Shown: positions 20-22,361 of the stretch, piece by piece
Layout of the letters: each line of letters starts with the position of its first letter
Position numbering within the stretch: the first letter of the stretch is position 1
Assembly: GCA_963678065.2 (NCBI GenBank)
Contig: CAXXVZ010000003.1
Coordinates: 288,001-352,000 of the forward strand
Reading direction: 5' to 3'
DNA: 64,000 nt
DNA from: Treponemataceae bacterium
GTDB lineage: Bacteria > Spirochaetota > Spirochaetia > Treponematales > Rectinemataceae
Made by a program: the position numbers and the translations under genes
Notes under the pieces: model-generated
The model's database searches: none
Seen by the model: only the letters and a program-made list of their open reading frames with translations
Told to the model about the DNA's origin: nothing

Positions 20-3000
20 GTGATCAATAGAAAGAGCTTGTCTTCCATCTTAGCCGTCGTGTTCATATGTGGTCTTGTCCTCGCGCCGGTATCGGCCCAG
101 ACTACCACCCTTGCAGGACTCACTGCGGCCCAGGCTGCGGCTCTTGCGGCTGCGCAGGGAGGTACTTCGGACCAGTCGGTTTCCGCACAATCTCCTGTAG
201 TTAACGAGCTCTCCGTCAACAAAGCCGGCGCGGACGCCAAGGGTTCTGTGTCGACTACCCCGATTTCACAGACTCCCCAGATCCAGTTCTCCATCGTAGA
301 GCGCATGTACGCGGCCACCGGGGTGGGGGAAGGAGATCAACTCACTCAGTACGGATACTCGCTTTTCTCCGGCGCTTCCGCTCCCTCCCTCGCTTCCGTG
401 GGGGACGATTATGTGCTCGGCCCCCAGGACAAGCTGGTACTGTATCTCTGGGGCGACCCTGTGGACATCAAGGAACTCCAGCCGAGCTACGAACTCTCCG
501 TTGACAGAGCTGGCAATATCTTCTTCGCTCCAGTCGGTCAGATCGCCGTTTGGGGGCAGGATCTCGGCACTTTCCGCACCCTTCTTAAGGCCCAGCTCGA
601 CCGTCGCTACAAAAAGCTGAGCATCTCCGTCGTTCTCGGAAAATTGCGGGAGTTCCCTGTGTCTGTCGCAGGTTTCGCGGGCGAACCGGGGACTGTCATG
701 GCTACCGGCGCGGATACCCTCGTATCCGTCCTCTCGCGCGCAGGCGGAATCATGAAGACAGGCAGTCTCAGGTCCGTCCGGCTCACCCGCGCGGGCAAGT
801 CGAAACAGGAATCCGTGACGGTGGACTTCTACGACGTTCTCATAAAAGGGAAAACTCTCGATCTGCGCGTGCGTGAGGGGGACTCTGTCTTCGTTCCAGG
901 CATTGGTCCTGTGGCGGGGCTTGCGGGGGAAATCCGCAGACCTGGAATCTATGAGCTGAACGGGGAAAAAACCATCGCCGAACTTGTGTCGCTGGCTGGA
1001 GGCCTTCTGCCCTCCGCTCGTTCCTCTTCTGCCTCGGTGGTCCGTTACGCGGGCGACCAGAAGAAACTCATCGCGGGTGATCTCTCCACTCCCACCTTTG
1101 CCGCTACCCCGTTTGCCGACGGTGACCTCGTGCTCGTGGGCAAGGTTAATTCCCTTGTCGCGAACGCCATCGAAGTAACGGGAGCTGTCAAGTTTCCAGG
1201 ACGCTACACTGTCGAATCATATGCGAGTCTCAAGGATCTTCTTTCGAAAGTCCAGGTTTTGCCCGAGACAAATCTCTATTATGGTCGCGTTTACCGGATC
1301 GATGCATCCGGCAGGGATCTGAGTTTCACCTTCTCTCCCAAGGACATCCTCGGAGGTAGTGCGGATTATCCCCTTCGTGCACAGGATATCGTCGTTTTTT
1401 ACCGCTACGACTACCAGCCGGCCAATCCTGAAGCCGACCGTTTTCCCGCAACCATTGTTCTCTCGGGCCCCGCCCGATACGCGGGACTCTATGCGTGGAA
1501 GCCGGGCACGAAACTTTCTTCCATCGTGACAAAAGACCAATTCCTTGTCGGTACAAGTCTTGAGTATGCCGAGATCGAGCGCAGATCCGTAGGCGGAAAG
1601 GCAGAGTACCGGACCTTCTCACCCCGCGATGTCATATCGGGTAAGTACGATATCGAGTTATCGGGGCGGGATGTGATTCGTTTTGTGGCATCTGAGTATC
1701 TGCCGGCGAAGCCAGACTTTGACAAGTATCCGGAGACGGTGGCGTTGTATGGGCCGGCGAAGTACAAGGGCTTGTATGCGTGGAAGAGTGGGTTGAAGCT
1801 GGGGATGCTGCTGAAGTCAGCGGAAGTGTTGTTGGATGCGAACCAGTACTATGCGGAGATAGTGCGGCCGCTTGGTGGTGGGAAGAACGAGTATCTGACG
1901 TTTGCGCCGCGTGAGGTATTGGCGGGGACGTTCGACATGGAGTTGCGGTCGAGCGATTCGGTGAAGCTGGTATCGTATGCGTCGAAGTCTGGTGGGATGA
2001 CGAGGTCGGGAGCGGAGGTGGCGCCGCCGGCGACAGGAAATGGCACGGTGATGGCAGCGGGGACGGCTGGTGTCGAGGCTGCGACAGGGCAAGGGAATTC
2101 ATTACCGTCGGGTGTCACGGTTGGCGGAACGCAAGCGAATGTGGTAGGAGCAACGGCTGCGTCGGTACCGGGAACGGCGGCTGGAACGACCGTGTCGGCG
2201 GCGATGGGGACTGCTCCGACGAGTGCTGCACAGAATCAGACGGAAGTCACAAGCCAAGAGAGCGTGGAAGCGCAATTTCTGGAAGCGGTGAGTGTGATGG
2301 GGCCGGTGCGGTATCAGGGGGTGTATGCGCGGACGCCGAACCTGAAGCTGTCGGATGTGGTGACGGCAGACCAGATACTGCAGACGACGAACACGATGTA
2401 CGCGGAGTTGACGCGGTACCTCGGGGACGGGAAGTACGAGTACTACGCGTTCAGTCCGAAGGACGTGTTGGAGAAGCGGTATGACATGGCGCTTGCGGCG
2501 CAGGACATGATCCGGTATGTGACGGTGGGGTATCTGCCGGCGAAACCGGACTTTGACCGGTTTGCGAGTGCGGTGGCGGTGTATGGGCCGGTGAAGGCAG
2601 CGGGATTGTATGCGTGGAAGCAAGGGCAGACGCTGTCGGGGCTGGTGAAGTATGCGGAGCTGGTGCAGGAGACGAACCGGTACTATGCGGAGTTGAAGCG
2701 ACCGATTGGTGGAGGGAAGTACGAGTACAAGACGTTTGCGCCGCGGGATGTGGTGGCGGGGACGTTTGAACTGGAGCTGAGAGCGAGCGACACGGTGACG
2801 TTCTATCCGGCGGGGTACAATCCGGAGAAACCGGACTTCGAGCGGTATTCCGAGGCGCTCTTGGTAGCGGGGAGTGTGAAATATCCTGGTCTGTACGCGA
2901 AGACGCCGGGGATGAAACTGTCCAGTCTGGTGACGAAGGACTGGTTTCTGACGACGACGAACACGGCGTATGGGGAACTGGTACGGTTTGTGAAAGAAGG

Positions 3001-6000
3001 TGTGTACGAATACCGGACCTTCAATCCGTCTGACCTCATCGAGGGGAAACAGGATTTTGAGTTAAATGGACGGGATGTGATCCATTTTGTGGCATCGGAG
3101 TATCTGCCGGCGAAGCCAGACTTTGACAAGTATCCTGAGACGGTGGCGTTGTATGGGCCGGCGAAGTACAAGGGCTTGTATGCGTGGAAGAGTGGGTTGA
3201 AGCTGGGGATGCTGCTGAAGTCAGCGGAAGTGTTGTTGGATGCGAACCAGTACTATGCGGAGATAGTGCGGCCACTTGGTGGTGGGAAGAACGAGTATCT
3301 GACGTTTGCGCCGCGTGAGGTATTGGCGGGGACGTTCGACATGGAGTTGCGGTCGAGCGATTCGGTGAAGCTGGTATCGTATGCGTCGAAGTCTGGTGGG
3401 ATGACGAGGTCGGGAGCGGAGGTAGCGCCGCCGGCGACAGGAAATGGCACGGTGATGACAGCGGGGACGGCTGGTGTCGAGGCTGCGACAGGGCAAGGGA
3501 ATTCATTACCGTCGGGTGTCACGGTTGGCGGAACGCAAGGGAATGTGACGGGAACAAGTGCTGCGGTTGCGTCAGTGCCGGGAACAGCGGCTGGAACGAC
3601 CGTGGCGGCGACGATGGGGGCTGCTCCGACGAGTGCTGCACAGAATCAGACGGAAGTCACAAGCCAAGAGGGCGTGGAAGCGCAATTTCTGGAAGCGGTG
3701 AGTGTGATGGGGCCGGTGCGGTATCAGGGGGTGTATGCGCGGACGCCGAACCTGAAGCTGTCGGATGTGGTGACGGCAGACCAGATATTGCAGACGACGA
3801 ACACGATGTACGCGGAGTTGACGCGGTACCTCGGGGATGGGAAGTACGAGTACTATGCGTTCAGTCCGAAGGATGTGTTGGAGAAGCGGTATGACATGGC
3901 GCTTGCTGCGCAGGACATGATCCGGTATGTGACGGTGGGGTATCTGCCGGCGAAACCGGACTTCAATACCTACCGTAATTTCATACTCGTGACGGGACCG
4001 GTGCGCCGACCTGGTGTCTATGCCTTCTCTTCGGGAATGAAACTGTCATCCTTTGTGAGGACAGAGGATCTACTTCTTGAGACAAACAAGCGGTATGCGG
4101 AACTGACACGGAAGAACTCGGACGGGAGCGAGAAGTACTACAGCTTCGATCCGACCGATATCGCGACCGGTAAAAAGGACATGAATCTTACCGAGCGCGA
4201 CCAGATTCGTTTTGTGGCATCGGAGTATCTGCCGGTGAAGCCGGACTTTGACAAGTATCCGGAGACGGTGGCGTTGTATGGGCCGGCGAAGTACAAGGGC
4301 TTGTATGCGTGGAAGAGTGGGTTGAAGCTGGGGATGCTGCTGAAGTCAGCGGAAGTGTTGTTGGATGCGAACCAGTACTATGCGGAGATAGTGCGGCCGC
4401 TTGGTGGTGGGAAGAACGAGTATCTGACGTTTGCGCCGCGTGAGGTATTGGCGGGGACGTTCGACATGGAGTTGCGGTCGAGCGATTCGGTGAAGCTGGT
4501 ATCGTATGCGTCGAAGTCTGGTGGGATGACGAGGTCGGGAGCGGAGGTGGCGCCGCCGGCGACAGGAAATGGCACGGTGATGGCAGCGGGGACGGCTGGT
4601 GTCGAGGCTGCGACAGGGCAAGGGAATTCATTACCGTCGGGTGTCACGGTTGGCGGAACGCAAGCGAATGTGGTAGGAGCAACGGCTGCGTCGGTACCGG
4701 GAACGGCGGCTGGAACGACCGTGTCGGCGGCGATGGGGACTGCTCCGACGAGTGCTGCACAGAATCAGACGGAAGTCACAAGCCAAGAGAGCGTGGAAGC
4801 GCAATTTCTGGAAGCGGTGAGTGTGATGGGGCCGGTGCGGTATCAGGGGGTGTATGCGCGGACGCCGAACCTGAAGCTGTCGGATGTGGTGACGGCAGAC
4901 CAGATACTGCAGACGACGAACACGATGTACGCGGAGTTGACGCGGTACCTCGGGGACGGGAAGTACGAGTACTACGCGTTCAGTCCGAAGGACGTGTTGG
5001 AGAAGCGGTATGACATGGCGCTTGCGGCGCAGGACATGATCCGGTATGTGACGGTGGGGTATCTGCCGGCGAAACCGGACTTTGACCGGTTTGCGAGTGC
5101 GGTGGCGGTGTATGGGCCGGTGAAGGCAGCGGGATTGTATGCGTGGAAGCAAGGGCAGACGCTGTCGGGGCTGGTGAAGTATGCGGAGCTGGTGCAGGAG
5201 ACGAACCGGTACTATGCGGAGTTGAAGCGACCGATTGGTGGAGGGAAGTACGAGTACAAGACGTTTGCGCCGCGGGATGTGGTGGCGGGGACGTTTGAAC
5301 TGGAGCTGAGAGCGAGCGACACGGTGACGTTCTATCCGGCGGGGTACAATCCGGAGAAACCGGACTTCGAGCGGTATTCCGAGGCGCTCTTGGTAGCGGG
5401 GAGTGTGAAATATCCTGGTCTGTACGCGAAGACGCCGGGGATGAAACTGTCCAGTCTGGTGACGAAGGACTGGTTTCTGACGACGACGAACACGGCGTAT
5501 GGGGAACTGGTACGGTTTGTGAAAGAAGGTGTGTACGAATACCGGACCTTCAATCCGTCTGACCTCATCGAGGGGAAACAGGATTTTGAGTTAAATGGAC
5601 GGGATGTGATCCATTTTGTGGCATCGGAGTATCTGCCGGCGAAGCCAGACTTTGACAAGTATCCTGAGACGGTGGCGTTGTATGGGCCGGCGAAGTACAA
5701 GGGCTTGTATGCGTGGAAGAGTGGGTTGAAGCTGGGGATGCTGCTGAAGTCAGCGGAAGTGTTGTTGGATGCGAACCAGTACTATGCGGAGATAGTGCGG
5801 CCACTTGGTGGTGGGAAGAACGAGTATCTGACGTTTGCGCCGCGTGAGGTATTGGCGGGGACGTTCGACATGGAGTTGCGGTCGAGCGATTCGGTGAAGC
5901 TGGTATCGTATGCGTCGAAGTCTGGTGGGATGACGAGGTCGGGAGCGGAGGTAGCGCCGCCGGCGACAGGAAATGGCACGGTGATGACAGCGGGGACGGC

Positions 6001-9000
6001 TGGTGTCGAGGCTGCGACAGGGCAAGGGAATTCATTACCGTCGGGTGTCACGGTTGGCGGAACGCAAGGGAATGTGACGGGAACAAGTGCTGCGGTTGCG
6101 TCAGTGCCGGGAACAGCGGCTGGAACGACCGTGGCGGCGACGATGGGGGCTGCTCCGACGAGTGCTGCACAGAATCAGACGGAAGTCACAAGCCAAGAGG
6201 GCGTGGAAGCGCAATTTCTGGAAGCGGTGAGTGTGATGGGGCCGGTGCGGTATCAGGGGGTGTATGCGCGGACGCCGAACCTGAAGCTGTCGGATGTGGT
6301 GACGGCAGACCAGATATTGCAGACGACGAACACGATGTACGCGGAGTTGACGCGGTACCTCGGGGATGGGAAGTACGAGTACTATGCGTTCAGTCCGAAG
6401 GATGTGTTGGAGAAGCGGTATGACATGGCGCTTGCTGCGCAGGACATGATCCGGTATGTGACGGTGGGGTATCTGCCGGCGAAACCGGACTTCAATACCT
6501 ACCGTAATTTCATACTCGTGACGGGACCGGTGCGCCGACCTGGTGTCTATGCCTTCTCTTCGGGAATGAAACTGTCATCCTTTGTGAGGACAGAGGATCT
6601 ACTTCTTGAGACAAACAAGCGGTATGCGGAACTGACACGGAAGAACTCGGACGGGAGCGAGAAGTACTACAGCTTCGATCCGACCGATATCGCGACCGGT
6701 AAAAAGGACATGAATCTTACCGAGCGCGACCAGATTCGTTTTGTGGCATCGGAGTATCTGCCGGTGAAGCCGGACTTTGACAAGTATCCGGAGACGGTGG
6801 CGTTGTATGGGCCGGCGAAGTACAAGGGACTGTATGCGTGGAAGAGTGGGTTGAAGCTGGGGATGTTGCTGAAGTCAGCGGAAGTGTTGTTGGATGCGAA
6901 CCAGTACTATGCGGAGATAGTGCGGCCGCTTGGTGGTGGGAAGAACGAGTATCTGACGTTTGCGCCGCGTGAGGTATTGGCGGGGACGTTCGACATGGAG
7001 TTGCGGTCGAGCGATTCGGTGAAGCTGGTATCGTATGCGTCGAAGTCTGGTGGGATGACGAGGTCGGGAGCGGAGGTGGCACCGCCGGCGACAGGAAATG
7101 GCACGGTGATGGCAGCGGGGACGGCTGGTGTCGAGGCTGCGACAGGGCAAGGGAATTCATTACCGTCGGGTGTCACGGTTGGCGGAACGCAAGCGAATGT
7201 GGTAGGAGCAACGGCTGCGTCGGTACCGGGAACGGCGGCTGGAACGACCGTGTCGGCGGCGATGGGGACTGCTCCGACGAGTGCTGCACAGAATCAGACG
7301 GAAGTCACAAGCCAAGAGAGCGTGGAAGCGCAATTTCTGGAAGCGGTGAGTGTGATGGGGCCGGTGCGGTATCAGGGGGTGTATGCGCGGACGCCGAACC
7401 TGAAGCTGTCGGATGTGGTGACGGCAGACCAGATACTGCAGACGACGAACACGATGTACGCGGAGTTGACGCGGTACCTCGGGGACGGGAAGTACGAGTA
7501 CTACGCGTTCAGTCCGAAGGACGTGTTGGAGAAGCGGTATGACATGGCGCTTGCGGCGCAGGACATGATCCGGTATGTGACGGTGGGGTATCTGCCGGCG
7601 AAACCGGACTTTGACCGGTTTGCGAGTGCGGTGGCGGTGTATGGGCCGGTGAAGGCAGCGGGATTGTATGCGTGGAAGCAAGGGCAGACGCTGTCGGGGC
7701 TGGTGAAGTATGCGGAGCTGGTGCAGGAGACGAACCGGTACTATGCGGAGTTGAAGCGACCGATTGGTGGAGGGAAGTACGAGTACAAGACGTTTGCGCC
7801 GCGGGATGTGGTGGCGGGGACGTTTGAACTGGAGCTGAGAGCGAGCGACACGGTGACGTTCTATCCGGCGGGGTACAATCCGGAGAAACCAGACTTCGAA
7901 CACTATCCCGAGGCGATTCATGTATCTGGAGCCGTCCGGTATCCCGGCCTGTATGCCTTGTCGGGAAATACGATGCTTTCCTCTATCTTGGACGCGGAAG
8001 TTCTGCGCACGGATACCAACATGGCGTATGCCGAGTTGAAACGGTACGCAGGCGAAGGAAAGTACGAATATACGGCATTTGCGCCTGGCGATGTGCTTGC
8101 GCGAAAATTTGACGTGGCTCTTTCTCCCAGAGACAGTCTTCGTTTCATCTCTGTGGATGGACCTCCGCCTGCACCCGACTTCGATCTTTTCCCCGGTTCC
8201 GTGTCGATCACAGGTTCCGTGAAGAATGGGGGATTGTACGCGCTCCGAAGGGGAATGAAACTTTCCGACCTCGTCAAAGAAGCTGCTCTGCGTCTCGACG
8301 CCAACATCTATTATGCCAGGTTTATCAAGACGCAGCCTGGCGGGCGCAATGAGTACCGGACCTTCGCGCCGCGCGAGGTGCTTGCCGGGACCTTCGACAT
8401 GGTGCTCACCGGTTCGGAGTCGATTCGCATCCTTTCGATCTCGGAAACCCGCCAGCCGCTCGGTGCCGAACGTAATGTCCGGACCCTCGGGGCGCCTCTT
8501 GTCGATAATTCCGGACAAGTGGCGGTCGGTGTCGCGCCTTCTCAGGGAAACACGATACCTGCTCCTGCAACCAGCGCCGCCTCGACTGTTGTCGCGGCCA
8601 AGATCGATGAGAAGAGTGTTTTATCGCCTTCAGCGCAGGTTGGCGTGCCTGCAGGACAGACGCAGGGAAGCGCCCTGGCCCAGACAGCAGTCAATCCGCT
8701 TCCGGTTCAGGATGCCGGGAAAGCCTCCGAGCCTGTCCTCACGGATATAGTCACTGTGGAGGAGGACCCCGAAGCGAAGCTCTACCCGCAAGTCGTGACG
8801 GTCTCGGGACCTGTCAAGTATTTCGGTTACTACGCGCGGACTCCCGGACTCAAACTCTCTTCTATTCTTGACAAAGAACAGATTCTGCCTTCAACCCATA
8901 CCGGATACGCGGAGCTCACCCGTTTTGTAGGCGACGGACGGTATGAGTACCTGACCTTCAGTCCGAAGGATGTCCTCGATGGAAGATTCGACCTTGTCCT

Positions 9001-10675
9001 GAAGGACCGCGATGCCATACGCTTCGTGCCCGTCGGCTATCTGCCCACGGAGCCCGATTTTAATCATTTCGACAAAGCTGTCGCGCTGTATGGTCCGATA
9101 GGAAACGCAGGGCTTTATGCCTGGACTCCCGGCGCGAAGCTTTCCTCGTTTGTGTCTTCCCGGTTCTTCCAGACCGAGACGAATCTCAATTACGCCGAGA
9201 TTGAGCGGCGGCTTCCGGGCGGCCGGTTCGAGTACCTTACGTTCAGTCCCAAGGCGGTAGTTGAAGGCGCTATGGACGTCGACTTGTCGGCGCGGGATGT
9301 GATCCGTTTCGTTCCTGCAGCGCTGAAGTCATCTTCTGTGAACAAGGATCGATTCTCCGCCGTCGTCACGCTTGACGGGAGCATAGATCATGCCGGGCCT
9401 CATGCTTGGCGGGAGGGGCTGACGCTGCTTGATGTTGTCGATCCCGCTTACTATAGGATGGATACCAATCTCGATTATGCGGAAATCCGGAGATCCACGC
9501 AGGCAGGGGACGCGATAATCACCTTTGCGCCCAAAAATGTCTGGGCGGATGGGAAGGCCGGGGGCATACGTCTCCAACAGCGCGACGCCGTGTATTTCTT
9601 CCCGAAGTACTACAAGGCTCCTGTTTCTATTTCAGGCGAAGTGCTCAATCCCAAAGTCATTCCCTATTTCGAGGGGATGACCATCCTCGATGTCCTGCGC
9701 GCCGTGGAACCAGCTTCCGAAACACGCGGACTGAAGGCCATCCTGAACCGCGCCGACGGAAAGGACGTCGCAGTCTACCTCGAAGACGTCCTCTATCGAC
9801 AGACGAACTCCTCTATTCCCCTCCTGCCGGGCGACAGCATCACTCTGCAGAAGCTTCTGCCCGACGAACGCCTGCCCCAGATCGTAGTCCGTGGCGCCGT
9901 CGTCAAACCGCAGACACTTCCCTGGAAACAGGGTATGAAGCTGTCGGAAGCGCTGAAGGCCTCTGGCGGCTACGATGTCAACGCCTATCCCAAGGGACTC
10001 GTTCTCATACGGAAGAGCGCCGCCTACGCCCAGCAGCTTCAAGTCGACCGTCTCATCTCGAGCCTCGATGCCGCTTCCCAGGAGGCCAAAACGGCTGCGG
10101 CTGCGGGCTCCTCTCTGAGCGCCTTGGAGGGAGGCGCGACCCTCGTCAATCTCCAGCTTGAACTCATCACGCAGAAGACTCAGCTCGCGGAACTGAAACA
10201 GCTCGGCAAGGAGGGCTTCGGCCGGCTCAATCTCGACCTTCCGCCGACAATCGCCGAGCTGGAAAGGAGTTCTGAGGATGTCCCTATCGAGCGAGACGAC
10301 ACGATCTTCGTGCCGACCACTCCTTCCTACGTGCTCGCGATCGGACAGGTGACCCAGCAGTCCGTCCTTGCGTACAAGAAAGGCATGACCGTCCGCGATG
10401 TCATCGCGGATTCGGGCTGGGCTACCCATGCGGCCGATCTCGGAGCCATCTCCGTCCTGCACTCGAATGGCAAGCTGACGAATTATGCCGGCAAGGGTTT
10501 CCTCTTCTTCCGTCCGAACATTCTCGATCTCACGCTTGAGCCAGGAGATGCTGTGCTCGTGCCGCGGGAGACGGTGAAGGTCAACGCGACCTGGGCATAC
10601 ATCAAGGACTCCGTCACAATCATCTACCAGCTCGTGACGGCGACCGTCTCGACACTGAAAATTCTCGGATTCTAG
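20..10675 (+). CDS. Giant Wza/KpsD-like polysaccharide export protein with ~29 SLBB modules (3551 aa)
   Basis: AGGAG RBS at 7-11 and GTG start. Signal peptide (..APVSA/Q). Poly_export-like DYVLGPQDKL..SVDRAGNIF segment. Repeated V-x-G-x-V-x-x-P-G-x-Y beta-grasp modules. C-terminal amphipathic helix (WAYIKDSVTIIYQLVTATV) like Wza D4. Adjacent to a Wzz-like gene. Confidence 0.9.
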   Translation: MINRKSLSSILAVVFICGLVLAPVSAQTTTLAGLTAAQAAALAAAQGGTSDQSVSAQSPVVNELSVNKAGADAKGSVSTTPISQTPQIQFSIVERMYAATGVGEGDQLTQYGYSLFSGASAPSLASVGDDYVLGPQDKLVLYLWGDPVDIKELQPSYELSVDRAGNIFFAPVGQIAVWGQDLGTFRTLLKAQLDRRYKKLSISVVLGKLREFPVSVAGFAGEPGTVMATGADTLVSVLSRAGGIMKTGSLRSVRLTRAGKSKQESVTVDFYDVLIKGKTLDLRVREGDSVFVPGIGPVAGLAGEIRRPGIYELNGEKTIAELVSLAGGLLPSARSSSASVVRYAGDQKKLIAGDLSTPTFAATPFADGDLVLVGKVNSLVANAIEVTGAVKFPGRYTVESYASLKDLLSKVQVLPETNLYYGRVYRIDASGRDLSFTFSPKDILGGSADYPLRAQDIVVFYRYDYQPANPEADRFPATIVLSGPARYAGLYAWKPGTKLSSIVTKDQFLVGTSLEYAEIERRSVGGKAEYRTFSPRDVISGKYDIELSGRDVIRFVASEYLPAKPDFDKYPETVALYGPAKYKGLYAWKSGLKLGMLLKSAEVLLDANQYYAEIVRPLGGGKNEYLTFAPREVLAGTFDMELRSSDSVKLVSYASKSGGMTRSGAEVAPPATGNGTVMAAGTAGVEAATGQGNSLPSGVTVGGTQANVVGATAASVPGTAAGTTVSAAMGTAPTSAAQNQTEVTSQESVEAQFLEAVSVMGPVRYQGVYARTPNLKLSDVVTADQILQTTNTMYAELTRYLGDGKYEYYAFSPKDVLEKRYDMALAAQDMIRYVTVGYLPAKPDFDRFASAVAVYGPVKAAGLYAWKQGQTLSGLVKYAELVQETNRYYAELKRPIGGGKYEYKTFAPRDVVAGTFELELRASDTVTFYPAGYNPEKPDFERYSEALLVAGSVKYPGLYAKTPGMKLSSLVTKDWFLTTTNTAYGELVRFVKEGVYEYRTFNPSDLIEGKQDFELNGRDVIHFVASEYLPAKPDFDKYPETVALYGPAKYKGLYAWKSGLKLGMLLKSAEVLLDANQYYAEIVRPLGGGKNEYLTFAPREVLAGTFDMELRSSDSVKLVSYASKSGGMTRSGAEVAPPATGNGTVMTAGTAGVEAATGQGNSLPSGVTVGGTQGNVTGTSAAVASVPGTAAGTTVAATMGAAPTSAAQNQTEVTSQEGVEAQFLEAVSVMGPVRYQGVYARTPNLKLSDVVTADQILQTTNTMYAELTRYLGDGKYEYYAFSPKDVLEKRYDMALAAQDMIRYVTVGYLPAKPDFNTYRNFILVTGPVRRPGVYAFSSGMKLSSFVRTEDLLLETNKRYAELTRKNSDGSEKYYSFDPTDIATGKKDMNLTERDQIRFVASEYLPVKPDFDKYPETVALYGPAKYKGLYAWKSGLKLGMLLKSAEVLLDANQYYAEIVRPLGGGKNEYLTFAPREVLAGTFDMELRSSDSVKLVSYASKSGGMTRSGAEVAPPATGNGTVMAAGTAGVEAATGQGNSLPSGVTVGGTQANVVGATAASVPGTAAGTTVSAAMGTAPTSAAQNQTEVTSQESVEAQFLEAVSVMGPVRYQGVYARTPNLKLSDVVTADQILQTTNTMYAELTRYLGDGKYEYYAFSPKDVLEKRYDMALAAQDMIRYVTVGYLPAKPDFDRFASAVAVYGPVKAAGLYAWKQGQTLSGLVKYAELVQETNRYYAELKRPIGGGKYEYKTFAPRDVVAGTFELELRASDTVTFYPAGYNPEKPDFERYSEALLVAGSVKYPGLYAKTPGMKLSSLVTKDWFLTTTNTAYGELVRFVKEGVYEYRTFNPSDLIEGKQDFELNGRDVIHFVASEYLPAKPDFDKYPETVALYGPAKYKGLYAWKSGLKLGMLLKSAEVLLDANQYYAEIVRPLGGGKNEYLTFAPREVLAGTFDMELRSSDSVKLVSYASKSGGMTRSGAEVAPPATGNGTVMTAGTAGVEAATGQGNSLPSGVTVGGTQGNVTGTSAAVASVPGTAAGTTVAATMGAAPTSAAQNQTEVTSQEGVEAQFLEAVSVMGPVRYQGVYARTPNLKLSDVVTADQILQTTNTMYAELTRYLGDGKYEYYAFSPKDVLEKRYDMALAAQDMIRYVTVGYLPAKPDFNTYRNFILVTGPVRRPGVYAFSSGMKLSSFVRTEDLLLETNKRYAELTRKNSDGSEKYYSFDPTDIATGKKDMNLTERDQIRFVASEYLPVKPDFDKYPETVALYGPAKYKGLYAWKSGLKLGMLLKSAEVLLDANQYYAEIVRPLGGGKNEYLTFAPREVLAGTFDMELRSSDSVKLVSYASKSGGMTRSGAEVAPPATGNGTVMAAGTAGVEAATGQGNSLPSGVTVGGTQANVVGATAASVPGTAAGTTVSAAMGTAPTSAAQNQTEVTSQESVEAQFLEAVSVMGPVRYQGVYARTPNLKLSDVVTADQILQTTNTMYAELTRYLGDGKYEYYAFSPKDVLEKRYDMALAAQDMIRYVTVGYLPAKPDFDRFASAVAVYGPVKAAGLYAWKQGQTLSGLVKYAELVQETNRYYAELKRPIGGGKYEYKTFAPRDVVAGTFELELRASDTVTFYPAGYNPEKPDFEHYPEAIHVSGAVRYPGLYALSGNTMLSSILDAEVLRTDTNMAYAELKRYAGEGKYEYTAFAPGDVLARKFDVALSPRDSLRFISVDGPPPAPDFDLFPGSVSITGSVKNGGLYALRRGMKLSDLVKEAALRLDANIYYARFIKTQPGGRNEYRTFAPREVLAGTFDMVLTGSESIRILSISETRQPLGAERNVRTLGAPLVDNSGQVAVGVAPSQGNTIPAPATSAASTVVAAKIDEKSVLSPSAQVGVPAGQTQGSALAQTAVNPLPVQDAGKASEPVLTDIVTVEEDPEAKLYPQVVTVSGPVKYFGYYARTPGLKLSSILDKEQILPSTHTGYAELTRFVGDGRYEYLTFSPKDVLDGRFDLVLKDRDAIRFVPVGYLPTEPDFNHFDKAVALYGPIGNAGLYAWTPGAKLSSFVSSRFFQTETNLNYAEIERRLPGGRFEYLTFSPKAVVEGAMDVDLSARDVIRFVPAALKSSSVNKDRFSAVVTLDGSIDHAGPHAWREGLTLLDVVDPAYYRMDTNLDYAEIRRSTQAGDAIITFAPKNVWADGKAGGIRLQQRDAVYFFPKYYKAPVSISGEVLNPKVIPYFEGMTILDVLRAVEPASETRGLKAILNRADGKDVAVYLEDVLYRQTNSSIPLLPGDSITLQKLLPDERLPQIVVRGAVVKPQTLPWKQGMKLSEALKASGGYDVNAYPKGLVLIRKSAAYAQQLQVDRLISSLDAASQEAKTAAAAGSSLSALEGGATLVNLQLELITQKTQLAELKQLGKEGFGRLNLDLPPTIAELERSSEDVPIERDDTIFVPTTPSYVLAIGQVTQQSVLAYKKGMTVRDVIADSGWATHAADLGAISVLHSNGKLTNYAGKGFLFFRPNILDLTLEPGDAVLVPRETVKVNATWAYIKDSVTIIYQLVTATVSTLKILGF
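1675..7899 (+). repeat. In-frame intragenic tandem repeat, period 2529 bp (843 aa), ~2.5 copies, with nested ~880-bp sub-repeat (5 copies)
   Basis: gattcgttttgtggcatc recurs at 1675, 4204 and 6733. The sub-repeat recurs near 1681, 3085, 4210, 5614 and 6739. Shadow ORFs in the track recur with the same 2529 offset. Confidence 0.97.
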
Positions 10676-10685
10676 GGGGAACACG

Positions 10686-11957
10686 GTGACCGACAACACG
10701 CTTCAGAACAGTCCCCAGTCTCTCCCGGGCAGTCCCGGACAGAACGACGATGAGATCAGTCTCGTGGACCTTGCTGCCGTCCTGTGGCGGCGCAAGGTCC
10801 TGATAATCGGCATAACGGTTCTCGCTGCCGTCCTGTCCGTGCTCTATGCCTTGAGCCAGCCGAACAAGTATTCCGCCCAGGCCGTGATCATGCCTATCGC
10901 GCAGGACAAATCATCTTCTCTTTCCCAGTACGCCGGGCTTGCCGCCATGGCTGGAGTGAGCTTGCCGGGAGGGAGTTCGGCGAGCCCTGTCGCTAAAATT
11001 ACGGCTATTCTCAAGAGTCGCACCCTTGCGGAGCGACTCGTGGACGAGCTTGGACTCGTGGACCGGCTCCTGGAAAAGCCGAAGAATGCACCAAAAATTA
11101 GATCCGGAGAGAAGCCCGCCGACCCCCGCATGATGGCTGTGGGATCGCTTATGAAAGGAGCATTCTCGGCGTCGGTGGACGACAAAACCTCGGTGATCAA
11201 AGTGTCCTCGACCACAAGGGACCCTGTTCTCTCCCGCGATATCGCCAATGGCGGCGTCAAGATTCTAGAAGATCTCCTCAACGAAAAGGCTCTCACGGTG
11301 AGTTCGAAATCCATCAAGGTTTTGGAGGAGCAGACGGCCGGGCAGGAAAAGAAGGTCAAAGAGCTGCAGGCCAAACTTTCGAGCTACCAGAAGCGCACCA
11401 AGGTCATCCAGCCTGAGGGGCAGCTCTCCGCTTCCCTTACCTTGTATCAAGGCCTGATCACTCAGAAAATCGGTCTTGAAGTCGAACTTGAACGGCTCCA
11501 GAGCGCCCTCTCCTCCGACAATGCCAAAGTGGTCTCCGCCAAAGCCCAGCTCTCGGCCATCCAGAGGCAGATCACATCTCTCGAAAAAACCGGCCTCGGC
11601 ATAGGTCCTTCGCTCTCTTCTGCTTCCGATATCGGAATGGAATACAGCAACATCCAGGGTGAGCTCGAGCTCGCGGCCAAACTCTACGGAGGACTTCTCG
11701 CCAGTCTTGAGAACGCCCGTCTCCAGAAAAATGACGACCAGCTCTATGTCGAAGTCATCGACCCGGCGATTACACCTGATAAGAAGTCTGAACCGAGTCG
11801 TTCAATGATTTGTGCCGTCGGTACATTGGCGGGCGCCTTCTTGGGCATTCTTCTTTCCTTCGTCCTCGACGCGCTTGCCAAAATCGCCGCCGATCCCGAG
11901 ATCCGCACCAAGTTTGCTTCCTCCCGCGCGGCCCGTAAAGGTCGGAATTCCCGGTAG
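10686..11957 (+). CDS. Wzz/GumC-family polysaccharide co-polymerase (chain-length determinant)
   Basis: N-terminal DEISLVDLAAVLWRRK plus TM, coiled coil, C-terminal VIDPAITPDKKSEPSR plus TM. No kinase domain. Confidence 0.88.
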   Translation: MTDNTLQNSPQSLPGSPGQNDDEISLVDLAAVLWRRKVLIIGITVLAAVLSVLYALSQPNKYSAQAVIMPIAQDKSSSLSQYAGLAAMAGVSLPGGSSASPVAKITAILKSRTLAERLVDELGLVDRLLEKPKNAPKIRSGEKPADPRMMAVGSLMKGAFSASVDDKTSVIKVSSTTRDPVLSRDIANGGVKILEDLLNEKALTVSSKSIKVLEEQTAGQEKKVKELQAKLSSYQKRTKVIQPEGQLSASLTLYQGLITQKIGLEVELERLQSALSSDNAKVVSAKAQLSAIQRQITSLEKTGLGIGPSLSSASDIGMEYSNIQGELELAAKLYGGLLASLENARLQKNDDQLYVEVIDPAITPDKKSEPSRSMICAVGTLAGAFLGILLSFVLDALAKIAADPEIRTKFASSRAARKGRNSR

Positions 11958-11995
11958 GTGCTCGGGTCGGCTTGGTTATGTCTTCAGGTCTATAC

Positions 11996-12026
11996 AGGGC
12001 GTCCCTTCGCGGGACGCCTTTTTTTT
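11996..12026 (+). terminator. Intrinsic terminator after wzz-like gene
   Basis: agggcgtccc-ttcgc-gggacgcctt hairpin followed by a T run. Confidence 0.85.
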
Positions 12027-12069
12027 GCTTCCTTGAAGGGCATTGGCCTTGGGAAATGCTGGTTTTCGC

Positions 12070-12098
12070 TTGAACCACATCGTCGGCGAGTTTATCAT
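12070..12098 (+). promoter_or_regulatory. sigma70 promoter, leaderless geometry
   Basis: TTGAAC-17-TATCAT-6 nt-ATG(12105); no SD. Confidence 0.65.
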
Positions 12099-12104
12099 CG
12101 ACGC

Positions 12105-13190
12105 ATGATCACGATAGCCTTCCTCCTTTCCGGCGCGATCGCGGCGGCTGTACTTCCTGCGATCATCGCATATGCCGCGCACAACCGGCTTTTCGATCCG
12201 GTCGACGCGCGGAAGATACACTCGGGCGAAGTATCTCGCCTGGGCGGGGTAGGAGTCTTCATCGCCTTCGTCCTGACTATCGCTGCCTTTGCCGTGCTAG
12301 CGAACTCGGTCATGACGCATATAGGCCGGGAACTGCGGTATTGGCCGGTCATGGCCGGCATCCTTTCCATGTTTATCCTCGGCCTCGTGGACGATCTCAG
12401 AAATCTTCGCGCCCGTTTCAAGCTTGTGATACAGCTGGCTGCGGCCTGTCTCGTGGTCTGTTCCGGATTTCGCTTCAGCGTGTTCTATATTCCCTTCGGT
12501 GACGGCCGCATCGACTTTGGCTGGTTTTCCTGGCCTCTCAGCATCGCGTGGATCGTCGGTGTTACCAACGCCATGAATCTCATCGACGGCCTGGATGGCC
12601 TTTCGGGCGGTATCACTGTCATAGCCTCCGCTGCCTTCGGTTGTTTCTTCCTTGTCAGGGGCGATACTTCCTCCGCTGTCATCTGTTTCGCCCTCTGTGG
12701 TGCCGCAGGCGGTTTTCTATTGTATAACTGGCCGGTGGCAAAGATCTTCATGGGAGATGCGGGCGCCCTCTTTATCGGCTTCACCCTCTCCGTCCTTCCT
12801 CTTCTCAACCAGAGCGCCGCTTTTTCCGATATCGGTCTTCTTTCCGCCCTGGCAATTCTCGGCATTCCCATACTTGACACGCTCGCCGCCATCTGGAGGC
12901 GTACAAAGGCTGGTGTCCACTTTTTTACGCCTGATCGCGGCCATATACACCACATGTTCCTGGACCTCGGCTTCAGCGTCTGGAAGATTCTTGGCATGGT
13001 CTATTCTGCATGTTTCGCCTTGTCGGTCTGCGCCCTGTCATTTCTCTTCCTGCCCGAGCGGCTCAGTTTTCTTCTGACCCTTGCCGGCCTTACTGTTCTC
13101 GTCTATATGTATGCCCTCCTCAGGGCGAGGACGGCGCTCAGACGCGAGATCGCCTCGCAGAAGGCAATTAATTTTTCCTCAAAGGATTGA
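12105..13190 (+). CDS. WecA/TagO-like undecaprenyl-phosphate HexNAc-1-P transferase (MraY/GT4 family), paralog 1
   Basis: RKIH..RLGG, GLVDD, NAMNLIDGLDG, FMGDAG and DRGHIHH motifs. Start moved to ATG 12105. Confidence 0.88.
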   Translation: MITIAFLLSGAIAAAVLPAIIAYAAHNRLFDPVDARKIHSGEVSRLGGVGVFIAFVLTIAAFAVLANSVMTHIGRELRYWPVMAGILSMFILGLVDDLRNLRARFKLVIQLAAACLVVCSGFRFSVFYIPFGDGRIDFGWFSWPLSIAWIVGVTNAMNLIDGLDGLSGGITVIASAAFGCFFLVRGDTSSAVICFALCGAAGGFLLYNWPVAKIFMGDAGALFIGFTLSVLPLLNQSAAFSDIGLLSALAILGIPILDTLAAIWRRTKAGVHFFTPDRGHIHHMFLDLGFSVWKILGMVYSACFALSVCALSFLFLPERLSFLLTLAGLTVLVYMYALLRARTALRREIASQKAINFSSKD

Positions 13191-13255
13191 ACCGCCTCCG
13201 GAAATAGTTTATAAAATACCTATCTGAGTTGTGCTGAAGTATTGCGGAGATTTAC

Positions 13256-14395
13256 ATGCAGAGCGTCGCGTTCATGGTGGCTGCAATTCTGTCTGTTGCC
13301 ATCACGCCGGGCATCATCTGGTTCGCCCGCAGTAAAAATCTCTTCGATTCAACCGGAGGGCGCAAGATCCATTCCGGCAAAGTCCCCCGGCTTGGTGGCA
13401 TCGGGGTCTTCGCCGCTTTCATAATGACGATTTTTGTTTTTGTCCTCCTCGAAAGAAGCATCCGTTCCGATCTATCCTCCGATTTTCGCTACTGGCCTGT
13501 CTTTAGTGGCCTGGTTGTTGTTTTTCTGCTCGGACTTGTCGACGATCTCAGGAATCTTCGTGCACGTTTCAAAGCCCTTGTTCAGCTCGCCGTCGCCATC
13601 CTGGTCGTCTCCATGGGCTTCCGTTTCCGGATTATCCTTGTGCCATGGGGCGGCGGCGTACTGAACCTGGGATTGCTCTCTGTTCCCCTCACCATCGCCT
13701 GGATCATCGGTGTCACGAATGCCACCAACCTCATAGACGGCATGGATGGGCTTTTGGGCGGCATAACTGTCCTCGCGGCCTCCGCCTTCGGCTTTTTTTT
13801 CGCCTTCAAGCGTGACACCTCTTCGATGGTTATCTGCTTCGCCCTCGCAGGCGCCTCTGCGGGCTTTCTCCCCTACAATCTTCCCAAGGCCAAAATCTTC
13901 ATGGGCGATGCCGGGGCGCTCTTCATAGGCTTCACGCTCTCTGTCCTGCCTCTCCTCAATCAAACGGACTCATCTGCCGAAATCGGCCTCATTTCCGCTG
14001 TCACCGTCCTTGGCATTCCCATACTCGACACCCTTGCAGCCATGTACCGAAGAAAACGGGCCGGCGTTCACTTCTTTACACCCGACCGGGGTCACATCCA
14101 CCACCTATTCCTGGATCTTGGCTACACTGTCTGGGGCATCCTCGCGCGCATCTACGCTGTATGCATTTTCCTCGATCTCGCCGCACTCTCTACTCTCTTC
14201 CTTCCCGGAGCGACAAGCTTCACGCTCAAACTCGTTTCTCTCTTTTTTCTCCTCGTGACCTACAGATTCCTCGTGCAGCGTGCCCGCGCGGTGGAGGGTT
14301 CCGGTATCTCCCTGGTCGGAAGCAATTCTGTCCCTGGCAGAGACAGCCAACCTGAAGCTTCCGCGTCGCTCCGTGCTGCCGAAAAAGAGGCATGA
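13256..14395 (+). CDS. WecA/TagO-like transferase, paralog 2
   Basis: Same motif set (GLVDDLRNLRARFK, NLIDGMDG, FMGDAG, DRGHIHH); GGAG RBS. Confidence 0.88.
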   Translation: MQSVAFMVAAILSVAITPGIIWFARSKNLFDSTGGRKIHSGKVPRLGGIGVFAAFIMTIFVFVLLERSIRSDLSSDFRYWPVFSGLVVVFLLGLVDDLRNLRARFKALVQLAVAILVVSMGFRFRIILVPWGGGVLNLGLLSVPLTIAWIIGVTNATNLIDGMDGLLGGITVLAASAFGFFFAFKRDTSSMVICFALAGASAGFLPYNLPKAKIFMGDAGALFIGFTLSVLPLLNQTDSSAEIGLISAVTVLGIPILDTLAAMYRRKRAGVHFFTPDRGHIHHLFLDLGYTVWGILARIYAVCIFLDLAALSTLFLPGATSFTLKLVSLFFLLVTYRFLVQRARAVEGSGISLVGSNSVPGRDSQPEASASLRAAEKEA

Positions 14396-14479: not shown

Positions 14480-17400
14480 ATGACAGTTCCATCCCCCGAC
14501 AACGCCATATCCGACCTTTCCCTGCGCGAGGGTGAGCGTCGCACCGTCACCGTCCTCTTTTCAGACATGCAAGACTTCACTCGCTTCTCGTCGGGATCCG
14601 ATCCCGAGGTGGTGGACGCTCTCATGAGTCGGGTCTTCGACGCCTTCGAGTCTGTGGTTCTCTCTCGGGGTGGGATGGTGGAGAAGTACATCGGGGATGC
14701 CCTCGTCGCTGTCTTCGGCTATCCGGTCCTCCACGAAGACGACCCGGTCCGCGCCCTGGATGCCGCCCTTGAGTTCAACGCTGCCGTGGCCGCCCTTTCG
14801 TCGTCCCCGCCGGTCTTCCGTACAGGCATCCACACTGGCCTCGTTGCGACGGGCAGACGAGGCCAGTTCGACGTCGTGACGGGTCACACAATGTCCTGCG
14901 CCTCGCGCATAGAGGGCCGTTCGATGCCGGGGCAGGTCCTCGTCTCCGAGGAGACTGTCGAGCGCTGCCGCAACTTTTTCGTCTTCGGCGACATCCAGCG
15001 CTTCATGCCCAAGGGGGACAGCCAGATCCTCACGGTCCGTCCCCTCATCGGGAGACGCCGTGCCTCGGTCCAGTACGAGACACCCTTTGTCGGCCGCTCC
15101 GACGAGCTCGACTCCCTTGTGGGGGCCTTCGTCCGTCCCATGGGCTCCGAGCGTTACGGGATCTACATCCACGGCGACGCAGGACTCGGCAAATCCCGCC
15201 TCGCTGTCGAGTTCTGCACCCGCCTCAAGCGCTACCCTGAATTCCACTCCCTCATACTCTTCGCGAATCCTTCCCTCTACCCCGAGCTTCCCTACAGCAC
15301 CATCCTCCGCCTTATTCTGGACGCTCTCGACCTCGACTCGAGCGTCTCCCTGGCGAGTATTCAGGTGGCTCTTTTGCGCCTCATGCCCAGTCCTCCCCGC
15401 GAACTGTCCACCGTGCTCGAGTGCCTCCTCAGGGTTTCGCGGCCGGGCGCCTCGAGTAGCCCGGGACCTGCTCAGGCCCAGCTCAGGCAGATGGGGGAGG
15501 GCCAGATTCTCGACGTGCTCGCCGGAGTCTTCGACGCGATCTTCTCATCCTGTTGCTCCATCTATCCCGGACTTGTCATTCTCGACAACGCCTCGATGAT
15601 GGATGAGTTGAGTCGCGGGTTCTTCCGCCACTATCTCTCGGGTTCGGGCGAGCGTCCTTTTTTCGTTCTCTGCGACCGCGCGCCGCACAAGGAGATCGCC
15701 TCGATCTTCGGCATCTCGAACCTCATCGCACTCGACACTCTCGCCGACGATGAATCCACCGAACTCGTCAGGCTTCTCGCAGGATCTCAGGTCGACGGAG
15801 CCCTCGTGGAGCGTATAGTCCAGCTCGCCCAGGGCTACCCCCTCTTCATCGAGGAATACGCGAGGCTTGCAGCCCGTGGTAGATCGATGGACGAGATGCC
15901 CGACACGGTGCAGACGGCCGTGTTGTCGTCGATGGACCGCTTCGAACCGGAACCGCGCTCGCTTCTGCCGCGCGTTTCTGTCTTCAAGTATCCCTTCACG
16001 TGCGAGGCGGCTGCCATGATGGCCGGGATGGAGCCCTTCCCCGTGCGGAATCTCGAAGACTGCCTCGCCCGCCTCGTGGAGGATGGCATACTTGTGCGCG
16101 GCACCTCGGGCTTCTACGGCTTCCGCCACGCCCGTATCCGGGAAGCCCTCTACGGCTCCATCCTCAACCACAACAAGCGCATCCTCCACGGACGCGCGGC
16201 CGAAGCCCTTCTCGCCTACACACCCTCGCGCGAGGACGAAATTCTCTACCACCTCGTCGGCGCTCAGGACTGGGAGAAGGCCCGCGCCTACCTCTTCAAC
16301 ATCGTCACCTCGCTCGGCATCGACTCCGAGCCCGTCGTGCGGCGCCTTCTCGAGGCTACCGGCCCCGACATGCCCGAAGCTCGCATCGAGATGCTCTTCA
16401 AGGAGTATGCGGTCCGCTTCAACAACCACGTCTACGAGGGCCTCGAGGACATCCTTTTCGAGATGCACCGCCTCGCCTGTTCGACGAAGCTCGACGCTCC
16501 GCTTGCCCGCACCTATCACCTCTTCATGACGTATTATCTGAAATTCGGAGATCCTTACGCCGCCGTGCGCTTCGGCGAGCGCGCCCTCGACCGTTACGCC
16601 TCGGGAACGAATCCCCGTGGGGCCTCCAATGCGCGCTTCTTTCTCTCCGAAGCCTACTGCCGGCTGGGCAACTACAGTCGCTCCCTGGAAATCCTCGCCG
16701 ACATTCCCTGCGACAACCCGCAGGGCGAACTCTTCCACGCCAAGACCATGCTCATCCACAAGCAGTACCGCTCGGACTACGCAGGCATCGAGGAATGGAG
16801 GCTGAGGGTTCTGGAACTCGAAACGAAAGCGGGCAACGAGAAGGCCATGCTGGACGCGAAGTTCCTCTGGTACTCCTATATGCTCCAGAACTTCGAGATC
16901 GACCGAGTCGACGAATCAGGTCTGCCCGAGGCCACATCCGGCGCCGACGTCGACACGTCATTCTTCTTCAATGCCAGCGTCGCCTCTGCCCTAGCGCGGA
17001 CGGGGCGCAAGGAAGAGGCCACCGAACGCTTCTCCCGCGCCGAATACTTCGCCGCCCAGATGCCCGGCTCCGACATGGAGTGTGCCGCCGACATGTGGCT
17101 CGCCTGGTCCTATTGGTTCGCCCCCGGAAACGCCCAGCGCGCCGGCTTCTGGGCTCGGCGCGCCCTCGACGCCGCCCTCAGCTCGCGCTCTGTCTGGCTC
17201 GAATTCGAATCTCTCGTCTTCCTCGCCATGCACGCACGCGATTCCGGCGACACCGTACTCTACACAAGCTACATCCGCGAAGCCGAAAGCCTTTCCCGCT
17301 GGACCTTCCACCGTGAACGCCGCGTCGAATCCATCTTTCACTTCCTGAAAGGCGACCCCGCCCGCGCCCGCGATCTTCTCGCCGACGAAGTCGCCTCCCT

Positions 17401-22139: not shown

Positions 22140-22290
22140 GAATGATCCTCCATGCAAGGACATCGCCTGAGTAAACGGATTTTGATTGAAACCTTCGCTG
22201 GTTTTTCGTATTTTTGTATTTATTGCCGAGTGACCGCGCGAGGGTTCGCGATTTCCTTCTCCGGGAGCCTTCCCCGAAGCCTCGCCTTTG

Positions 22291-22319
22291 TTGCCTAAGC
22301 CCGGCAGGCTCTGTATAAT
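22291..22319 (+). promoter_or_regulatory. sigma70 promoter for glgA operon
   Basis: TTGCCT-17-TATAAT. Confidence 0.7.
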
Positions 22320-22361
22320 CAATTTCCCGTCCCACGATGTTCTGCAGGAGGACCGAGAGCC

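Follow-up and report, generated by a model that had tools for sequence, protein, structure and literature searches.

The window (the whole 64,000-nucleotide stretch of DNA that was analysed) opens with one very long gene for a polysaccharide export protein of the Wza/KpsD type (OPX), which raises the question of whether an exporter of this size is real and, if so, what distance it might span. The gene is a single intact open reading frame of 3,551 amino acids (a product of about 380 kDa) with zero internal stops. It starts with GTG behind an AGGAG motif at positions 7-11, and an identical full-length protein is recorded on two contigs. The following features were located in the gene:

20..10675, plus strand: giant OPX gene (open reading frame, Pfam, profile of its own modules, fold matches to Wza 2J58 and GfcC 3P42)
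20..97, plus strand: predicted cleavable Sec/SPI signal peptide, amino acids 1-26, cleaved between VSA and Q (inspection of the sequence)
398..634, plus strand: Poly_export domain, amino acids 127-205 (Pfam)
653..1987, plus strand: conserved opening block with modules 1-5 (this block has 5-6 modules in 23 of 25 relatives)
1988..2278, plus strand: low-complexity linker 1, 97 aa (this and the next five from the module profile)
3392..3688, plus strand: low-complexity linker 2, 99 aa
4517..4807, plus strand: low-complexity linker 3, 97 aa
5921..6217, plus strand: low-complexity linker 4, 99 aa
7046..7336, plus strand: low-complexity linker 5, 97 aa
8450..8785, plus strand: low-complexity linker 6, 112 aa, of unique sequence
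8786..10579, plus strand: conserved closing block, six modules long as in 24 of 25 relatives
10013..10213, plus strand: predicted long helical hairpin in the penultimate module, KpsD/GfcC-like region (AlphaFold2 helices 217-250 and 253-283 of the model)
10586..10672, plus strand: predicted C-terminal amphipathic helix, Wza_C-like outer-membrane anchor (AlphaFold2 helix 408-435, low pLDDT)

Pfam identified the export domain (Poly_export, PF02563; E 5.5e-10, 39.7 bits against a cut-off of 28) and SLBB (PF10531; E 4e-49). Only two individual SLBB stretches passed on their own, so that Pfam undercounts the modules. A profile made from the protein's own modules found 29 beta-grasp (SLBB) modules in the order 4 + (A~B C D A'~B' E)x2 + A~B C + 8. 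The six linkers measure 97, 99, 97, 99, 97 and 112 aa from the N- to the C-terminus. A preliminary description, made from the DNA letters, had proposed a Wza/KpsD protein with an export domain, about 29 modules in this order and six linkers of about 100 aa. Pfam, the module profile and the fold matches agree with it on all of these points.

AlphaFold2 predicted the middle triplet of modules from 57 sequences with a pLDDT of 94 and a pTM of 0.88, which suggests that three-module runs are likely to be rigid segments. The best fold match of this model was Wza (E 1.5e-7; rmsd 6.2-6.8 Å over about 195 columns), and it also matched GfcC (3P42, E 9e-5). The modelled triplet would thus share the fold of Wza but differ in the angle between modules. 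The C-terminal model was weak (pTM 0.35, six sequences) and was used for fold class only, with matches to Wza (2J58, E 4.5e-8) and GfcC (3P42, E 1.4e-6). The best Pfam score for GfcC_C was E 0.06, in the relative P0028. A three-copy complex prediction of the middle triplet scored 0.00 and counts neither way. The predicted C-terminal helix of 28 residues has a mean hydrophobicity of 0.39 and a moment of 0.24. Its position is conserved in relatives, and Pfam Wza_C did not match it.

The combination of Poly_export, a following SLBB, and co-polymerase and biosynthesis genes nearby places the protein in the OPX superfamily. Class 1 OPX proteins, typified by Wza, are SPII lipoproteins in 78% of cases according to PMC9603273. 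In contrast, inspection of the N-terminus found no conserved lipoprotein Cys in the giant OPX, and its relatives have an AxA-Q type cleavage site; the first 40 aa were Cys-free in 6 of the 8 relatives listed, two of them called from a later start. Class 3 proteins are short, lack a terminal helix and work with a separate beta-barrel porin, a set of traits that the giant OPX with its predicted terminal helix does not share. The closest correspondence is with the KpsD-like Class 2B described by Saidi et al. 2022 (PMC9603273), in Poly_export and the multiple SLBB modules and, as predictions in the giant OPX, in the SPI signal peptide, a C-terminal region that may be GfcC-like and has a helical insert, and a terminal amphipathic helix. 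Class 2B proteins have a median length of 824 aa in that source, against 3,551 aa and 29 modules here, and the giant OPX differs further in its periodic disordered linkers and its near-identical DNA repeats. We read it as a real, new giant version of a KpsD-like OPX.

Directly downstream of the giant OPX are three genes, all assigned by Pfam:

10686..11957, plus strand: Wzz/GNVR polysaccharide co-polymerase, 423 aa, without a kinase domain, of ordinary size
11958..13190, plus strand: first WecA/MraY-like (Glycos_transf_4) initiating transferase
13256..14395, plus strand: second WecA/MraY-like (Glycos_transf_4) initiating transferase

The Wzz/GNVR gene starts 10 bp behind the giant OPX, in the same order as in the relatives' loci shown, and its product is the likely partner of the exporter. 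The upstream cluster is low in GC and riddled with insertion sequences; it contains glycosyltransferases, nucleotide-sugar enzymes, a Wzy-like gene and a Wzx-like fragment. The cargo is likely to be a Wzx/Wzy-type surface polysaccharide made by this cluster. In this respect the locus departs from the KpsD system, which uses KpsE and the KpsMT ABC transporter. A Wzi-like barrel gene was observed near the relatives' loci (a weak match) and elsewhere in this genome.

A large part of the gene consists of a tandem repeat with a unit of 2,529 bp, or 843 aa, comprising seven modules and two linkers and present in about 2.45 copies:

1715..4243, plus strand: repeat unit copy 1 (self-comparison)
4244..6772, plus strand: second copy of the repeat unit, without differences from the first; the relative P0002 lacks this unit (self-comparison, module order of P0002)
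6773..7890, plus strand: partial third copy (A, linker, B, C), with 4 synonymous differences

Copies 1 and 2 are identical across 1715-4299. Tandem Repeats Finder reported nothing in the gene because the 2,529-bp unit exceeds its period limit of 500 bp. Among the copies of the A and B modules, 2-5 of 86 codons differ, and all of these differences are synonymous, with zero replacements; this substitution pattern is purifying.

We searched for relatives of 1,953-6,215 aa and obtained 25 proteins of 2,191-3,551 aa, of which the protein in the window is the longest. Their named source organisms are Spirochaetales and Rectinema. The record titles of related loci also include Rectinemataceae and Treponemataceae. 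The preliminary description had pointed to module number across orthologues as a check, and this number indeed varies: 18 modules in three proteins, 20 in three, 21 in fourteen (the mode), 22 in two, and 24, 27 and 29 in one each. The end blocks are fixed, whereas the middle is built from blocks of three modules in 50 of 69 cases. P0002, which is 97% identical at the N-terminus, has 22 modules, exactly one seven-module unit fewer, and a second near-identical pair of relatives has 27 and 24 modules. Length changes between genomes thus consist of whole triplet-plus-linker or septet-plus-linker units gained or lost, and recombination among the near-identical repeats would drive them. Shorter members of the linker subfamily have 10-12 modules and one linker (P0028, P0030, P0032).

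The linkers evolve differently from the modules. The 94 linkers across the family range from 32 to 198 aa, are about two thirds Ala, Thr, Gly, Pro and Ser, and contain zero Trp or Cys. Between the giant OPX and P0003 the linkers are 30-36% identical and the modules 50-90%, and across the family the linkers diverge much faster. The same A-to-B junction carries a linker in some relatives and none in others. A quick module tree of 86 columns shows position-specific classes and classes that flank linkers, with many open forks.

The carriers have one trait in common. Flagellin was not found in this genome, nor in 20 of the 36 family genomes, whereas the search detected it in every one of 24 further genomes of the order. 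Linker-type giant OPX genes, whole or in pieces, occurred in 9 of 21 flagellin-negative and 0 of 16 flagellin-positive family genomes, and none was found in the 24 other genomes of the order. Hence, all carriers among the 61 genomes were without flagellin. The flagellin-negative genomes form one clade on the tree of the tether protein described below, so that flagellum loss and protein lengthening count as a single event rather than as independent samples. A class-wide flagellin search used too strict a threshold and missed known flagellated genomes. Rectinema cohabitans is described as rod-shaped (PMC6052044), and PMC12236494 reports for other spirochaetes that loss of flagellar genes accompanies a non-spiral shape.

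Several other proteins that span the envelope are also lengthened in this clade. A second OPX subfamily sits on a branch separate from the giant OPX. Five flagellated genomes encode members with 4-5 modules and two encode members with 8, against at least 20, 22 and 24 modules in three flagellin-negative genomes; a fourth gene is split by a scaffold gap. Against this trend, genome G029 has OPX genes of 807 and 264 aa. They lie in a foreign-looking stretch whose neighbouring genes are mostly without matches in the genome studied here, and this stretch is possibly a chimera or a transfer.

The tether consists of a barrel-like N-terminus, a chain of Ig domains and a C-terminal OmpA domain. It was fetched from 40 of 60 relatives, and eight truncated genes were set aside. 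The complete genes of flagellated genomes encode 8 Ig domains in 18 of 20 cases, and 9 and 12 once each. In contrast, the 13 complete flagellin-negative genes encode 16 Ig domains in nine cases, 20 in three and 48 in one, which is this genome as assembled. No orthologue longer than 3,152 aa was found for the 48-Ig tether, and this genome also retains a second paralogue with 9 Ig domains. Tether lengths in the protein database show two peaks, at about 1,350-1,400 and about 2,240-2,280 aa, with Rectinema in the latter, and matches in 65 of 110 other genomes of the class included no frame above 1,747 aa. The N-terminal part has no Pfam family; its structural look-alikes are PorV-like barrels with scores below 0.9, which serve as a lead only.

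A helical protein with a weakly LysM-like end (below the Pfam cut-off, E 0.004) has a median length of 259 aa and a maximum of 615 aa in 35 flagellated genomes, against 841-1,335 aa in ten flagellin-negative genomes and 2,076 aa here. It exceeds 800 aa in 11 of 18 flagellin-negative matches, and the other seven are fragments of long genes. TamB measures 1,390-1,576 aa in 35 flagellated genomes, with four short frames left out. The six complete flagellin-negative genes encode 2,603, 2,900, 2,923 and 1,993 aa in four cases and 1,493 and 1,127 aa in two; most of the remaining ones break at contig ends or gaps. The lengthening amounts to as much as twofold in TamB and to about fourfold in the LysM-like protein. 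Frames of TamB in other genomes of the class reach at most 1,735 aa, except for one weak match of 2,074 aa, and such stretching is therefore not general in the class. Background on TamB and on OmpA as a spirochaete tether is given in PMC8407342 and 10.1101/2021.05.31.446380. When 5,604 frames of at least 300 aa in this genome were ranked by near-identical internal repeats, the top four were the tether, the giant OPX, the LysM-like protein and TamB.

We consider it fairly probable that the giant OPX is an extra-long export conduit across a periplasm that is predicted to be unusually wide in a flagellum-less clade of spirochaetes. The preliminary description had already suggested that the protein could be a length-tunable conduit or scaffold across a wide periplasm; the length differences observed are those between genomes. 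The wide-periplasm reading gains independent genomic support because the second OPX, the tether, TamB and the LysM-like protein also became longer in this clade; its extension to spirochaetes in general does not hold, as flagellated relatives use exporters of 4-8 modules. PMC13469938 describes the end of Wza formed by the export domain as docking on the inner-membrane co-polymerase. By analogy with Wza-Wzc, the N-terminal export domain of the giant OPX would dock on the adjacent Wzz-like co-polymerase, the helix at the C-terminus would lie in the outer membrane, and the protein would form an oligomeric tube with all intervening modules in the periplasm. The optional, fast-evolving, disordered linkers may provide slack or hinges between rigid segments, and could let the conduit adapt to a gap whose width differs around the cell. 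The linkers are unnecessary for length as such, because giants of 23-28 modules in Firmicutes and the second spirochaete subfamily do without them.

How wide the gap might be can be gauged from two proteins of known dimensions. The three domains of Wza cover 12 nm (PMC13469938), and by extrapolation at 4 nm per domain the 22 domains of the clade would extend for about 88 nm and those of the giant OPX for about 120 nm, plus linkers, although this rise per module is uncertain because the predicted geometry between modules differs from that of Wza. YhdP, a protein of 139 kDa, measures 25 nm according to PMC10592960, and extrapolation from it puts the long TamBs at about 52-58 nm, where TamBs of usual length come to about 29 nm. 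The two rulers disagree, although a rise of about 2.5 nm per module would bring the OPX into line with TamB. A variable gap would also reconcile both: the periplasm may be wide or ballooning, close in places and wide elsewhere. TolC (466 and 501 aa), efflux adaptors (454 and 486 aa), BamA (850 aa) and Wzz (423 aa) are ordinary-sized in this genome, which implies that the gap is not uniformly wide. LptD was undetected by Pfam in five genomes. Furthermore, module number is no precise ruler, because the 97%-identical relative manages with 22. In Thermotoga maritima the lateral periplasm measures 70±10 nm and the polar periplasm far more (PMC10160955), and the OPX is 992 aa long.

The ordinary sizes of TolC, the adaptors, BamA and Wzz would also fit a periplasm of near-ordinary width at the export site. 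The polymer would then pass through a short core, with the additional triplets looped out to the side on their linkers as a periplasmic scaffold, a polymer-holding chamber or an extra membrane tether. The existence of members with 10-12 modules, strains that differ by 3 or 7 modules, and the A-to-B junction that occurs with or without a linker point the same way. We nevertheless regard sideways loops as unlikely, since they leave unexplained both the 20-24 modules of the linker-poor second OPX subfamily in the same clade and the joint lengthening of TamB, the Ig tether and the LysM-like protein.

The extra length could also be a tolerated by-product of G-skewed, recombination-prone repeat DNA that amplifies in this lineage's modular genes, with no selection for span. 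The new segments in all four genes share a strong third-position skew of G over C on the coding strand. This skew amounts to up to +0.8 and is at least +0.4 in 19 of 22 sequence windows, against a genome mean of -0.19 (sd 0.16), which points to a common process at the DNA level. Together with the identity of repeat copies 1 and 2, such amplification may well account for the last step, from 22 to 29 modules. As an account of the length as a whole it is improbable, as the clade-wide 21 modules and 16 Ig domains are old, diverged, unskewed and tightly held, the amplification is concentrated in envelope spanners, and the module copies show no amino acid replacements.

There is very little to commend the idea of a glycosylated filament, secreted or displayed on the cell surface, whose mucin-like linkers would be modified by enzymes of the neighbouring glycan locus. 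The composition of the linkers, rich in Ala, Thr, Gly, Pro and Ser and devoid of Trp and Cys, would suit it, and a Wzy_C/O-antigen-ligase-like gene lies upstream; this family includes O-oligosaccharyltransferases. The conserved Poly_export domain and the adjacent Wzz, however, imply a periplasmic topology. The earlier suggestion that the linkers are glycosylated found no support either: STT3 was absent from the genome, and N-x-S/T motifs were not enriched (22, against 20.5±3.9 in shuffles). A search with PF11846 (O-glycosylation) gave no match here and none in the controls.

The number of repeat copies was checked by dividing the depth of public short-read unitigs by the multiplicity of their 31-mers in the window. 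Runs X14 and X16 may include the source sample, and runs with a small share were left out. In X14, depth per copy was 27.4-28.2 in all six listed repeat unitigs, with 27.9 in a unique 5' piece and 32.4 in a unique 3' piece. In X16, it was 23.7-26.3 in all six, with 24.0 and 33.4 in the corresponding unique pieces. Runs X17 and X1 were patchy over the gene; X1 represents a diverged strain, in which the sole testable piece fits a shorter allele. These results support the doubling of the 2,529-bp unit, since a false doubling would halve the depth per copy in two-copy pieces, and confirm that the assembled copy number matches short-read depth. An assembly error that hides a true protein of 22 modules is therefore scarcely credible. 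In its favour are the 100% identity between copies 1 and 2, the 22 modules of the closest relative and the lack of a short-read contig that bridges the array, but in both runs depth rises with the number of assembled copies (2x, 3x, about 4x) in each of the 12 listed repeat unitigs.

The giant OPX can be set against several known systems. E. coli Wza (PDB 2J58) was the best fold match for both modelled parts and has the same domain order, but Wza is a lipoprotein of 12 nm with two SLBB domains (PMC13469938), whereas the giant OPX is without a conserved lipid-anchor Cys. Relative to Wza-Wzc, the predicted angle between modules differs and the partner has no kinase. PMC11041684 presents a model of KpsD as a barrel of eight subunits. 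Long OPX proteins of Thermotogae, Limnochordia and other Firmicutes (P0034, P0038, P0182) reach 23-28 modules and 2,040-2,563 aa in hosts that apparently have wide envelopes. They differ from the giant OPX in their separate tree branch, uninterrupted arrays without low-complexity linkers and shorter length. The native spirochaete OPX of the Treponema primitia type (about 490-630 aa) belongs to the same superfamily and order as the giant OPX, and its own members reach 20-24 modules in the flagellum-less clade, but it is a separate subfamily with 4-8 modules in flagellated hosts and no long linkers.

Published ranges of SLBB per protein are 1-8 (PMC1796856) and, by Pfam count, 1-14 (PMC9603273); lengths compare better than counts because Pfam undercounts modules. 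The longest OPX among the rows compared from PMC9603273 is 1,728 aa (Kosmotoga), alongside others of 1,550-1,672 aa, and the giant OPX doubles that length. The preliminary description would have lost its point if large orthologues proved common and already described. Proteins of more than 2,000 aa are indeed common in the clade, but no description was found: the literature searched, with most subscription journals outside its coverage, held no account of giant OPX proteins or of this clade's envelope.

Most work on how trans-envelope machines are matched to the width of the periplasm has dealt with envelopes of the size found in E. coli, about 23 nm. On a wider view, we tentatively suggest, as a possibility slightly short of even, that the Rectinema-like spirochaetes without flagella have remodelled their envelope around a toga-like periplasm 2-4 times as wide as is usual in spirochaetes. 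The genomic sign of this would be that two independent exporters, an Ig-chain tether, TamB and a LysM-like coiled spacer all became longer in parallel. The lineage studied here would be in further, ongoing lengthening via G-skewed recombinogenic repeats, with a segmented, linker-jointed tube of at least 100 nm. This would be counter-intuitive, since a spirochaete that lost its periplasmic flagella might rather be expected to have a narrower periplasm. Several unrelated spanners that change length together in one clade offer a genomic ruler for periplasm width, and no single marker of the probable widening of the envelope in these spirochaetes is better than the giant OPX. Its family, with 10 to 29 modules, provides a natural length series for asking how polymer export copes with distance.

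The Ig/OmpA tether, TamB and LysM-like proteins, which like the OPX protein are lengthened in the flagellum-less clade, are encoded in the source genome (G000) on the contig that holds the window (C3):

L060:1415-18736 (G000:C3:181914-199235), + strand: Ig/OmpA tether, 5,774-aa frame
L102:5030-12838 (G000:C3:925029-932837), - strand: TamB, 2,603 aa
L103:1266-7493 (G000:C3:1628765-1634992), + strand: LysM-like helical-repeat protein, 2,076 aa

The tether frame runs from a barrel-like N-terminus through Ig domains to a C-terminal OmpA domain. The assembled gene contains 48 Ig domains of the FlgD/CHU_C type, i.e. six times the usual number, arranged as near-identical tandem units. TamB, whose gene adjoins a BamA gene, carries a near-identical internal duplication with copies 3,186 bp apart; contig ends often interrupt TamB genes in the flagellum-less clade. 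The LysM-like protein, probably a lipoprotein, consists of helical repeats with a weak LysM domain at its end, and its homologues in flagellated relatives measure only ~250 aa.

In the recently amplified segments of these genes (L060, L102, L103) and of the giant OPX gene (window 1715-7890), third codon positions were strongly skewed towards G over C. This skew followed the coding strand irrespective of the genome strand of the gene. The segments accounted for 19 of the 22 most skewed windows of G000 at these positions, and the same skew occurred in expanded segments of three related genomes (G017, G026, G035). R-loop-prone DNA or biased gene conversion could underlie this pattern.

Related genomes contained further OPX genes:

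L126:1406-7789, L127:1677-8033 and L036:1997-7585: expanded members of a second OPX subfamily
L035:6342-8762 and L135:5941-6732 (G029:C5): ordinary OPX genes, 807 aa and 264 aa
L051:3489-11869: second copy of the giant OPX gene in one related record, broken into three frames

In flagellum-less genomes, the expanded proteins of the second subfamily have 20-24 modules and lack long linkers; both giant types are present in G026 and G029. In G029, a single contig carries a giant OPX gene and both ordinary ones; the stretch around the latter looks foreign for spirochaetes, possibly reflecting a chimeric assembly or transfer. The split at L051 (frames of 1,853, 285 and 747 aa) may stem from frameshifts or read errors.

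Several features surround the giant OPX gene, in G000 or in relatives:

L058 and L046 (G000:C3 about 250000-288000): upstream glycan cluster
Window 14480-17488: adenylate/guanylate cyclase with AAA domain, 1,002 aa
L031:2063-3916, L038:4803-6629 and L053:15632-17452: Wzi-like barrel gene of relatives, ~610 aa

The upstream cluster has a low GC content (0.28-0.45), is broken up by several IS-like ORFs and includes what appears to be a fragment (184 aa) of a Wzx-like gene. Directly 5' of the giant OPX gene lies a MarR-like gene. Two WecA-like genes stand in tandem (window 11958-14395), directly upstream of the cyclase gene, whereas the relatives' loci viewed contain one. Farther downstream, a 1,069-aa frame (window 19728-22937, - strand) had no match in Pfam. 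In several relatives, the giant OPX, Wzz and WecA genes are followed by the Wzi-like barrel gene, which gave a weak Pfam match in the single relative gene scanned; the Wzi match of G000 (L139) is on a different contig from the giant OPX gene.

A tomographic study of Thermotoga (PMC10160955) describes tubes with a length of ~80 nm and a width of 10 nm that span the periplasm, attributes them to pili or secretion systems, and reports a toga enriched in a beta-grasp protein. A long OPX protein is a candidate alternative identity for these periplasm-spanning tubes.
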